Positions 40,801 to 43,800 of a stretch of 64,000 nt of DNA are shown one piece after another. The position numbers were made by a program. Positions within the stretch are counted from its first letter, which is position 1. Each line of letters opens with the position of its first letter. Source of the DNA: Escherichia coli. Its GTDB lineage: Bacteria; Pseudomonadota; Gammaproteobacteria; Enterobacterales; Enterobacteriaceae. The stretch lies in the NCBI RefSeq assembly GCF_003019035.1, contig NZ_CP027447.1. One strand, written 5' to 3'.

Positions 40801-43800
40801 CCCCGGCCCGAATGCCAGCCCCCTGACGGCGAGATCCTGCATCAGGTCGTCGAATATCCCCACCTTAAGCGGCTTCGGTGCTTCCCTGTTGAATAAGTCA
40901 GGCCACATCTCAGTGAGGCGGTTAACGCGCCTGCGGTTTTTGCGCTGGCGTTTGGTCATATGCCGCCACGGTGTCACCCCTGTGGGCTGCCCTTTGCGGC
41001 TCTGCTGTGCGTTCTGATTGCCGGGTATCACTTTATGCGCCGATGTGGTTTTATCCCGCTCTTGCGCCGCCTGCGTCGTTTTCTGCGGCGTGCCGTAAAT
41101 GCCTTTCGGTTTTCGGTTAATGGTCAGCTTTGTCATGCCTTCCCCTGTAATTACTCTGTTCGCTGTTGTGAATTAAAACGGTATGTTATCCCCGTACAGG
41201 TCATCGTGCTGGCCTGTCTGTTGTTTTGCCCTGTTCAGTGCGTCAGTGGCCTGCCCCTGTTGGCCTTTTTTGCCGCCCGGTCGCGCCGTTCTCGCACTGA
41301 TTACGCTGTCTGCGATGACCTGCCAGCCCTGCCGCGTTTCGCCGTTCTGCCCTGTCCACTGGCTTACCTGCATGTTACCCGCCACGCTCACCAGTTCGCC
41401 TTTGTGGTGTCTGGCCAGTGCGTCGGCCTGTCTGCCAAACGCCAGGACGGATAACCACATCGTAGCCGTTCCGTCATCGGCCTGGCTGCACGGCAGGGGA
41501 ACCGCCATACTCGCCATCGCCATTTGTGTCCCTTTGCTGGTGGTTTTCAACTGCGGGTCAGCCACCAGCCGCCCGTAAGCTGCTATCTGTGCTGTCATGC
41601 TGTCTGCTCTCCGGTTTTAACGTTGATGGTTGTCACCTGTTCCGCTTCGGCAATCTCCCGTTCTGTCAGCGTGGCAAAGTTTGCCGCCGTCGTGGCCATG
41701 AATGCGCTTATCAGTTCGGGATGTGCTTTCGCGTATCCTTCCCCGGCGTGGCGGTCTATCGTTCTGATTGCCACCTTTAAGGCGTGCTCTGTCATGTCTA
41801 ATGCGCGATATTTTGGCGCTGTTTTATCTCTGGTTTTTCTGTTCATTCCCCACCACTCCCCACTTTTGTTCCCCACTTTTTAAAATTCCCCACTTGCTCC
41901 CCACCTCGTTTTTTTGTGATTCTAACGTGATGTTTTTCAATGTGTTTTTTACTCCCCACTTTTTTGGGTATATACAGGTGGGAAAGTGGGGAGTAACGTT
42001 GATTTTTTGTTAAATTCCCCACTCTCCCCACTTTTGTTCCCCACTTTTTACATCGGGTGAACATCATCGCCGTCAATAGCGATTACGTCGTCACTTTCCA
42101 GCTTGCGTAACCAGCGACTAAAGTGCTTCATCTCATACCCCAGCTTTTTCATATCATCACGCAATAACGGGATAGTGCATTTATCGCCGCGCTGTGTGCG
42201 TGAACGGATACAGCCCCATAGCGCGGCGTGATTCTCCGTCTTGTTCCCGGCTTCCTCGATGCGCTCCAGTTCAACTGGTGGGCGCGGCTTATCCACAACC
42301 ACCAGCGACGTGATTAACTCCTTGTCAGCGTCGGTAAAAAGCTCCACCACGCGTAAATCGTATGCGGCCTCTTTCAGTTCCTCTGCGTCCTTCATTTTGG
42401 TGCAGGAGATAACCAGGGCTTCACTGTCCGCACCTTCGCGGCGGATCCGGTATTCAGCGTCCAGAGATGCACGAAATGCACTGGAACCACGCGCCCCCTT
42501 TGTTTCATCCTTGCCGGAATGGTGAACCACCAGTACCGTGGCCCCTGTGCGTCGTTTCAGTTCGTCACATCCACGGATAAACGCCCCCATATCCCGCGCG
42601 TCATTTTCATCATTACCGCCAAAGCAACGCGCCAGCGTATCCAGAATAATCATGCGTACCGGTTTACCCGTTTCCCGTTCAACCTGACGGGAAGCGATGA
42701 CCATTTCATCAACATCAAGCGGGACCGCCGGAAAAATCGGGCGGTTTACCAGGTACAGATTTTCCACCCGTTCATCATTAACGATTTCCCATGCCTTGAT
42801 ACGGCGGGGGACACCAATGCCACCTTCACCGACGACATACATCACCGAACCATGCGCCACCCTGCGGCCTCCCCAGTGGCGACCCGTGGCAACATGACAC
42901 GCCCAGGAACACGCAAGGAATGACTTATAGGAACCGCTCGCGCCGTATGTGCTGCACAATGAATTAGCCGGAATCACGCCCTTAACGACATAATCAAGCT
43001 GTGTGTCGTACCCTGCAGATCCAATACTCATTGGTAGCGTGGTTTTTCGCTGGCTGTATTGCTCGTCAGTAAGTATTTCCCCGCGCTCTGCCTGTTCGCG
43101 GATCCGTTGCAGGTAGTCGTGCCAGTTCTCCAGCTTCTGGCTGTGCATTCCCTCAGGGTAATAATTCGCATCCCGTACACCTGCCGCCGCCAGCTTTTGC
43201 CCGATGGCATTAATATTTGACGGCTTGATGTGGCCTGCCTTGTACAGCCGGACACAATAGCGACCATCGTCGATAATTTTCAGGTCTGCCAGTTCGTCAA
43301 GCTGGCTGTCTCCCAGCCATACAGGAGGCACGTTGTCGCCAGCAAGTCGCCCGTCCTGTTCCTGCCACTGTTTCGCGTGCGCCCAGGCATCACTACCCGC
43401 AAAAATAATGACTTCGGTCATTTTGTCGTGCGGCTGTTTTTTTAAGTTCGGTGCCAGTTTCATTTTTTACCCCTGAATGCGTTAATCATGTTTTTCATTT
43501 TCTGAATGTTCGCCCGTGCCTTTGCGTTGCTGGTGGGCTGTTTGTGTGGTGTGGCCTGTTCCAGAGAAAAATCACGCCGGAACTGATAAACAGGCATCAC
43601 GCAGTCGTAGCTGTACCCATCACGGCGGTAAGTAACGCACCGTCCGGCAATACTTTTAATCGTTACCGTGCCGCCGTAGTTATCCCGGAAAATATCGCCG
43701 GAGCGGATTTCAGGCCGAGCGGGGCCGCTGGCAGTAAAGCCAGAATTTTTCTGTTTCATGGTTTTTATTCCTCTGCGCGGGTCTTGTCGTGTATTTCCAT

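Follow-up and report, generated by a model that had tools for sequence, protein, structure and literature searches.

A repeat array directly downstream of a RecA-fold helicase gene as the probable replication origin of a capsid-forming satellite island in Escherichia coli

The stretch of DNA considered here, hereafter the window, comprises 64,000 nucleotides of the Escherichia coli contig NZ_CP027447.1 (assembly GCF_003019035.1), and it carries a satellite island of approximately 14.9 kb, located at about 33.56-48.5 kb, whose genes lie on the minus strand. Within this island, the gene rep (42048..43463, minus strand) is an open reading frame (ORF) for a putative initiator-helicase of 471 amino acids (aa), which matches the family phrog_2850 over its full length (E 3.8e-249). 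Immediately 3' of this gene, a series of short repeats spans the full 201-bp gap that separates the rep stop codon (42048-42050, minus strand) from the ATG of the next gene at 41846, and the entire gap (41847..42047, without an assigned strand) is proposed here as the replication origin of the island. A preliminary description of the window had read these repeats as the iterons of a satellite origin, a layout that does match the published origins of phage-inducible chromosomal islands (PICIs), in which repeats stand on both sides of an AT-rich stretch (PMC6092414; PMC9371898).

The heptamer TCCCCAC occurs 15 times in the window, with 10 copies falling within 41847-42044 and only five in the other 63.8 kb, of which the isolated copies at 40697 and 40857 are not accompanied by a T-tract. 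As shuffled sequences contain 7.5 copies per 64 kb, approximately 0.024 copies would be expected per 201 bp, and the Poisson estimate for at least 10 copies in a segment of this size is ~1e-23. The direct copies start, on the plus strand, at 41847, 41857, 41870, 41887, 41898, 41953, 42016, 42025 and 42038, and the sole exact inverted copy is found at 41986-41992. The nine direct repeats counted in the preliminary description were thus recovered, whereas its inverted pair resolves into one exact and one degenerate copy. The longer 11-mer TCCCCACTTTT is present in five exact copies and one inverted copy with one mismatch, all of them in 41857-42048, with no other copy in the window, and the repeat unit reads AAAAGTGGGGA on the strand that encodes rep. 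Two grades of repeat can be distinguished, i.e., six strong copies with an A-tract (I1-I6) and five weaker copies without it, the latter being those at 42016, 41898, 41887 and 41847, together with the degenerate inverted copy at 41977-41984.

Following the array from rep towards the next gene, the first strong copy, I1 (TCCCCACTTTT, 42038..42048, plus strand), overlaps the rep stop codon with its A-tract and is kept in all the related loci, and it is followed at a distance of 13 bp by I2 (42025..42035, plus strand) and by a less conserved weak copy, a TCCCCAC without the T-tract (42016..42022, plus strand). The inverted strong copy I3 (41982..41992, minus strand), which reads AAAGTGGGGA on the plus strand, and the direct copy I4 (41953..41963, plus strand) are the right and left arms of a perfect central palindrome, with arms of 14 nt (41949-41962 / 41983-41996) and a spacer of 20 nt. 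As single-stranded DNA, this palindrome is predicted to form a 14-bp hairpin (z = -4.6). A search of Rfam found no RNA family here, the only hits being two microRNA-like chance matches through the palindrome (E 0.26-0.35), which lie far under the gathering scores. The degenerate inverted copy GGTGGGAA (41977..41984, minus strand) is present in many, not all, related loci. The palindrome spacer also contains a conserved box that is not a repeat, GTATATACAG (41968..41977, no strand assigned; CTGTATATAC on the rep strand), whose columns are 80-100% conserved among 63 distinct loci. This box was considered as a possible LexA box, a candidate that was rejected on a direct reading of the sequence, in which the right half-site finds no match.

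The five copies at 41847-41904 and the six at 41953-42048 are separated by an AT-rich spacer (41905..41952, no strand assigned; 71% A+T, 56% T on the plus strand), which is proposed as the DNA unwinding element by analogy with the model for Staphylococcus aureus pathogenicity islands (SaPIs) and E. coli islands. The narrower stretch at 41906-41951, to which the preliminary description had drawn attention, is real, although moderate, with 74% A+T against a window average of 50%. Beyond the spacer are found a weak copy (41898..41904, plus strand) that is variable among related loci, a further weak copy (41887..41893, plus strand), the strong copy I5 (41870..41880, plus strand), the strong copy I6 (41857..41867, plus strand) 13 bp from I5, and a last weak copy (41847..41853, plus strand), which abuts the ATG of the next gene. 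The first three and the last three copies of the array are included in a 48-nt direct repeat, whose two occurrences lie 168 bp apart.

The protein encoded by rep can be divided into an N-terminal alpha/beta domain (residues 1 to ~130), a RecA-fold core (~150-390) and a C-terminal winged helix (~401-471). Its sole Pfam domain is AAA_25 (PF13481; residues 152-320, E 7.8e-44), which agrees with the earlier reading of the gene on the 5' side of the array as one for a RecA-like ATPase, and its only sequence relative in the PDB is the hexameric helicase RepA of plasmid RSF1010 (1g8y, E 0.004). An AF2 model, built on 61 homologues, reached a pLDDT of 91.8, and Foldseek searches with the core of this model retrieved Twinkle, T7 gp4 and RSF1010 RepA (1g8y, target TM 0.74). 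In the part of rep that encodes the winged helix (residues 401-471; 42051..42263, minus strand), the DSSP assignment of the model gives three helices (410-424, 431-440 and 448-457) and a beta-hairpin (strands 461-464 and 467-470), with 448-457 as the predicted recognition helix. When modelled as a separate domain, residues 401-471 retrieved only winged-helix DNA binders, i.e., Fur, the C-terminal domain of MCM, DtxR, the MarR family and FtsK-gamma. Rep is a fusion of helicase and initiator, and not a Rep of the plasmid type.

The N-terminal domain of this protein (1 to ~130) has no recognised family by Pfam and no sequence relative in the PDB, and some of the viral models that resemble it in structure are TOPRIM-helicase fusions. 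These ~130 residues (43074-43463 in the window, and 12242-12640 in the locus L084; 62-82% identical) are found fused to three unrelated types of helicase, being AAA_25 plus the winged helix in the window, a P4-type primase C-terminal domain in the island EcCICFT073, and DUF927 in a third type of initiator (P0162), which combines the same N-terminal domain with a DUF927 helicase.

The searches found 2949 members of the family, and the conservation of the array was followed in two sets of loci. The close set comprises 80 loci from IMG/VR, in which Rep is 63-100% identical to that of the window, with 63 distinct loci used for column conservation. The distant set was obtained by scanning one genome per species and adds 80 loci (72 distinct; Rep 47-71% identical) from Xenorhabdus, Photorhabdus, Kosakonia, Erwinia, Serratia, Pectobacterium, Morganella, Yersinia, Aeromonas, the Oceanospirillaceae and others. 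In 80 of the 80 close loci, the array is in register with that of the window, beginning at the rep stop codon, and the repeats again lie directly after rep in the distant set. Among the 63 distinct loci, the six strong copies are 95-100% conserved, barring the core positions that switch between types, while the spacers drift. The core itself occurs in the variants GTGGGG, GTGAGG, GTGGGC and GTGAGT, and in the few genomes that carry two or more loci, the repeat classes may be either the same or different.

Some of these loci record changes in the array itself. For example, in one locus (L004) the centre of the origin is missing and only three repeats are left before the ATG of the next gene, which is consistent with a recombination event between the flanking 48-nt repeat sets that deleted 168 bp; this island should be unable to replicate. 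In another (L016), the first cluster has grown to seven copies with a period of 13 nt, which shows that the copy number of the array changes by slippage or unequal exchange. Three others (L009, L015 and L017) have hybrid origins, in which an Asn at residue 447 of Rep is accompanied by four to five GTGAGG repeats and by two to three far-left repeats that are still GTGGGG, and these may be recombinants caught before the homogenisation of the array.

The relationship between Rep and its repeats was scanned by comparing every column of the Rep alignment with the fourth base of the repeat core in 67 distinct pairs of Rep and origin. A single column was perfectly associated, that of residue 447, which is His with GTGGG (36 pairs) and Asn with GTGAG (31 pairs). 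The mutual information of this column reached 0.996 of 0.996 bits, and that of the next best column was 0.38. Codon 447 (His in the window) occupies 42123-42125, and its residue takes the N-cap position of helix 3, the predicted recognition helix. In a nucleotide scan of the last 300 nt of rep, only position 42125, the first base of this codon (C or A), was perfectly tied, and the repeat bases tied to it were 42041 (I1), 42028 (I2), 41989 (I3), 41956 (I4) and 41873 (I5). The corresponding base of I6 (41860) has a mutual information of 0.76, with the three hybrid origins as the exceptions, and bases 42018 and 41890, in two of the weak copies, reach 0.65 with the repeat class. Given that every site in the 74 nt that separate codon 447 from the repeats remains at 0.33 or less, plain physical linkage does not explain the tie. 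Recombination has uncoupled the neighbouring sites, but not the pair formed by residue 447 and the repeats, which points to selection. No column of the neighbouring proteins examined (the 83-aa ORF, SSB, DUF4222 and the two small upstream ORFs) was perfectly associated with the repeats. The specificity is extended by a second pairing, in which E-M/I-K-x-F accompanies GTGxGG, and D-T/V-K-x-L/M accompanies GTGxG(C/T).

The pairing also holds in the distant set, where His at the position aligned to residue 447 is accompanied by G in all five of its loci, and Asn by A in 23 of 25 loci, the other two having no array that matches the search pattern. Lys, found in 35 loci, is accompanied by G in 24, by T in two and by C in one, with eight left unassigned, while Ser (six loci) is accompanied by C in five (GTGCGGC), with one unassigned, and the single locus with Gly also has C. 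Asn side chains have a general preference for adenine, and those of His and Lys for guanine, with which these pairings agree.

The layout of the window, with iterons around an AT-rich region directly 3' of rep, was described for the PICIs of E. coli in 2018, and was said to be common to all of them (PMC6092414). In that work, a segment of EcCICFT073 comprising pri-rep-ori could maintain a temperature-sensitive plasmid, but not if either rep or ori was disrupted (PMC6092414). The order of the genes in this island (strain CFT073) is DUF4222, an initiator of 584 aa, a 288-bp gap filled with repeats, an ORF of 85 aa and SSB, so that the two islands share the same gene order, an origin directly 3' of rep and repeats around an AT-rich stretch, and the 85-aa ORF is 82% identical to the 83-aa ORF of the window. 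On the other hand, the two initiators have only their first ~130 aa in common (62% identical), given that the remainder is a P4-family primase C-terminal domain (TIGR01613) in EcCICFT073, and an AAA_25 RecA-fold helicase with a winged helix in the window. The repeats differ accordingly, with about a dozen copies of a TCTACC type, in both orientations, in the gap of EcCICFT073, and AAAGTGGGGA in that of the window. The helicase, the DNA-binding part and the repeats have thus been exchanged together between constant flanks, as would be expected if the gap is the cognate origin of each initiator. Replication was tested experimentally in EcCICFT073, whereas the putative origin of the window was recognised from its sequence. 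The repeat sequence of the window does not appear in the supplements of the 2018 study (PMC6092414), and the papers on capsid-forming PICIs include no analysis of the origin.

A mechanistic model is provided by the SaPIs, whose Rep loads itself as a helicase and uses a C-terminal winged helix to bind 6-12 iterons directly 3' of rep (PMC9371898). Melting of the AT-rich centre by this protein requires no ATP, and a hexamer is believed to load on each of its two sides (PMC9371898). The system of the window is alike in that its initiator is a helicase with a C-terminal winged helix, short iterons lie 3' of rep around an AT-rich centre, and no separate loader is encoded. The motors differ, given that the SaPI Reps are AAA+ proteins (SF3 or MCM-like) that move 3'-5', whereas the Rep of the window has the RecA fold of the RSF1010 RepA and T7 gp4 type, whose helicases move 5'-3', and the two systems have no sequence similarity.

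Given the enrichment of the repeats, their conserved placement, the covariation with Rep, the predicted folds, the positional homology with EcCICFT073 and the SaPI model, the segment at 41847-42047 is very probably the replication origin of a capsid-forming PICI (cf-PICI), with rep (42048-43463) encoding both its initiator and its replicative helicase. The binding of Rep to the repeats and a Rep-dependent replication are, in turn, inferred from sequence, from the structural model and by analogy. Following published PICI biology, induction by a helper phage would switch on the single rightward operon of the island, and Rep would be made. Its C-terminal winged helix would then bind the AAAAGTGGGGA repeats, as the covariation and the predicted fold suggest, with the six strong copies bound more tightly than the five weaker ones; the copies are arranged as a direct cluster at each edge of the array, with a facing pair between them. 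The fourth base of the GTGGGG core would be read by His447, where the recognition helix begins. If the analogy with the SaPI Rep holds, the bound protein would oligomerise and open the 48-bp AT-rich spacer (41905-41952), the central palindrome, or both. The RecA-fold core, similar to RSF1010 RepA, may then close around the single-stranded DNA as a self-loaded ring helicase, after which the SSB of the island would coat the strands, and the primase and polymerase of the host would carry out the synthesis.

Several points weigh against this assignment or parts of it. The SaPI iterons reverse their orientation from one side of the AT-rich centre to the other, a rule stated for SaPIs only and not for E. 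coli islands (PMC9371898). In the window, by contrast, the outer clusters run in the same direction, which is that of all five left-hand copies and of four of the six right-hand copies, and inversion is confined to the central pair, with the inverted copies (41977-41992) facing the copy at 41953. The AT-rich spacer is also only moderately unstable: it contains the least stable 30-mers of 41700-42200, but these rank near the 95th percentile of the window, and melting could rather take place in the palindrome spacer or at 41993-42015. The fold matches of the winged helix are weak, with E-values of 0.1-0.5 (probability up to 0.97), and the counts of the covariation are of sequences rather than of independent evolutionary events, with each class spanning several genera. 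Finally, neither Rep nor its neighbours have a recognisable primase domain, which leaves priming unexplained.

The assignment as an origin may be set against a reading of the array as mainly a transcriptional operator, bound by Rep or by a different regulator of the island, for the downstream genes (the 83-aa ORF, ssb and the capsid operon) or for autoregulation, with replication starting elsewhere. The iterons of many plasmids also act in autoregulation, the array of the window is internal to an operon and immediately precedes the start codon of the following gene, and a conserved box that contains TATATA is found at its centre. However, a scan for sigma-70-like promoters and terminators predicted none in 41847-42047 on either strand, with regional counts that do not exceed the shuffle expectation, and the repeats lie 3' of rep rather than at its promoter. 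In addition, they covary with Rep and with no neighbouring protein tested, the same slot of EcCICFT073 is needed for plasmid maintenance (PMC6092414), and the window contains no other cluster of repeats that could be a candidate origin. An operator as the main role of the array is, for these reasons, improbable.

A role as a packaging site (cos or pac) for the terminase of the island, or as a site of partition or incompatibility, is less probable still. The small subunits of terminases often recognise short repeated sequences, and genes for TerS, TerL and HNH proteins are present in the island itself, but the array abuts rep and lies ~5.6 kb from terS (35732-36229). It also follows the type of rep rather than that of the packaging genes, with the same Rep and repeats found in a small island without the terminase module (L001), and EcCICFT073 keeps the flanking genes while the helicase and the repeats are swapped together, which, as with the repeat base that tracks a residue of Rep, is not what a packaging site would lead one to expect. 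That the array is a decayed relic or a low-complexity sequence with no present role is the least credible of the three alternatives, given that, although the loss of the whole centre in L004 demonstrates that an array can be lost, 10 copies are observed where ~0.02 would be expected by chance, the strong copies are conserved while the spacers vary, and their concerted change with residue 447 across genera requires selection.

The preferred reading, that of an origin served by its own helicase-initiator, may also be compared with other known replicons. P4 is likewise a satellite of E. coli phages, and its alpha protein is an initiator-helicase that binds repeats on the scale of an octamer through its C-terminal domain, with the crr site, annotated as direct plus inverted repeats, directly 3' of the alpha gene. 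However, P4 needs two sites, ori and crr, some 4.5 kb apart, whereas the 11-mers of the window form one cluster of 192 bp, with no second cluster in the island or in the 64-kb window, and the alpha protein carries a primase domain, while none was recognised in the Rep of the window. An alpha-type replicon was therefore rejected as a candidate, given no detectable similarity between Rep and alpha (best BLASTP E-value 0.33), no TIGR01613 match in Rep and a single cluster of repeats.

Among single domains, RSF1010 RepA is the closest structural match to the core of Rep, with which it shares the Pfam family AAA_25, but it is a bare helicase, to which the Rep of the window adds the N-terminal domain and the winged helix. 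In RSF1010, the origin is recognised by a separate protein, RepC, whereas the Rep of the window could perform both the recognition of the origin and the work of the helicase.

The iteron plasmids (pPS10 RepA, R6K pi, RK2 TrfA and F RepE) resemble the window in their direct repeats, a winged-helix initiator and an AT-rich unwinding element, with the repeats setting the specificity of the replicon. Their Reps are small proteins with two winged helices and no motor, which recruit the DnaB of the host via DnaA and DnaC, whereas the initiator of the window has its own helicase, and its iterons are of ~11 bp rather than 17-22 bp. A candidate origin of this type (Rep_3 / RepA-pi-TrfA) was rejected, given that AAA_25 is the only Pfam domain of Rep and that no DnaA box with at most one mismatch is present in 41847-42047. 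A perfect DnaA box, TTATCCACA, does occur at 42289-42297, inside the rep coding sequence and ~240 bp from the origin; with four perfect boxes in the window, it is probably incidental.

The architecture of PICI origins was already known, and the known picture of how such an origin is built is unchanged. What is added is the exact anatomy of this origin, a motor from a different helicase superfamily to that of the characterised satellite Reps, and the pairing of one residue with one base. Tentatively, and with somewhat more doubt than confidence, the pair formed by rep and its origin may represent a distinct and very widespread class of satellite replicon, which would combine a self-loading RecA-fold (SF4-like) ring helicase with a winged helix of its own, in place of an AAA+ motor, and a one-residue code at the helix N-cap (His/Lys-G, Asn-A, Ser/Gly-C). 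If this is the case, the code would be readable and would provide mutually orthogonal replicons for satellites that share one cell, and the specificity of the origin would be predictable, and open to re-engineering, from sequence alone. At a more general level, the occurrence of three unrelated types of helicase, each with its own repeats, between the same flanks and behind the same N-terminal domain helps explain how the specificity of replication is reshuffled among these islands. The analysis also places the origin of a very common family of E. coli satellites to the base, and corrects the start of one gene.

This gene (41595..41846, minus strand) follows the origin directly and encodes an 83-aa protein of the family phrog_1231. 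A mechanically called ORF with a GTG start (41595-41876, 93 aa) overlaps the array, and its first ten codons (41847-41876) are repeats, for which reason the preliminary description had suspected that the start was mis-set, a suspicion borne out here. The ATG at 41846 gives a product of 83 aa, whose residues 1-82 align with positions 1-82 of 83 in phrog_1231, and the homologous gene of related islands has 252 nt in the RefSeq annotation. The ATG is also kept in the related loci, whereas the sequence upstream of it is repeat and varies with the type of repeat. Given this end-to-end match, the annotated length and the conservation of the ATG, the comparison of sequences identifies the true start as the ATG at 41846, and not the GTG at 41876. 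The SSB gene of the replication module (41173..41598, minus strand; phrog_44, E 5.3e-39, and RefSeq annotation of homologues) follows the 83-aa gene, so that the earlier placement of the array 5' of SSB was only approximate. On the other side of rep, a DUF4222 gene (43460..43759, minus strand; phrog_285) lies directly upstream with an overlap of 4 nt, and this gene adjoins all three types of initiator.

Read along the minus strand, the island begins with the integrase (47250-48509), followed by two AlpA-type regulators, a Bro-N/anti-repressor gene, small ORFs, DUF4222 and rep, and then by the repeats, the 83-aa ORF, SSB, two further small ORFs, and the capsid and terminase module. This module comprises the major capsid protein, protease, portal, adaptor, HNH, TerS and TerL (34087-35748), i.e., a full set of head and packaging genes, and PHROG assignments and the RefSeq annotation of near-identical loci give no tail or lysis genes. 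The homologous island in a further locus (L002) is annotated alike. The published criteria for a cf-PICI are a size of 10-18 kb, int, an alpA-type regulator, a replication module, capsid and terminase genes of its own, and no tail or lysis genes (10.1101/2025.02.11.637232), and the definition of the capsid-forming type is also given in 10.1101/2022.09.08.507074. By these criteria of gene content, the island is a cf-PICI, in agreement with its earlier description as a satellite. Of 5426 complete E. coli genomes, 1870 contain a similar rep and origin region, which is chromosomal in nearly all cases, and the GenBank phage collection returned no match to this region, which is thus not part of a deposited phage genome.

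The island interrupts a prophage terL gene, whose halves lie at 48479-49672 and 32834-33559 and correspond to positions 169-448 (N-terminal) and 449-673 (C-terminal) of phrog_9, and the terS, portal and capsid genes that belong to the prophage are found on either side of the island. A satellite that disrupts the terminase of a prophage merits a separate study. The C-terminus of the integrase (residues 287-418) also matches positions 690-811 of phrog_9 (terminase large subunit; E 4.3e-25), and it is likely that read-through or fused annotations from islands located in terL have entered this profile. Lastly, the mechanically called ORF at 44420-45928 (502 aa, TTG start) matches a family only in its last ~55-70 residues (transcriptional repressor / Icd-like), and it is probably not one gene, with several small genes being annotated at this position in related islands.

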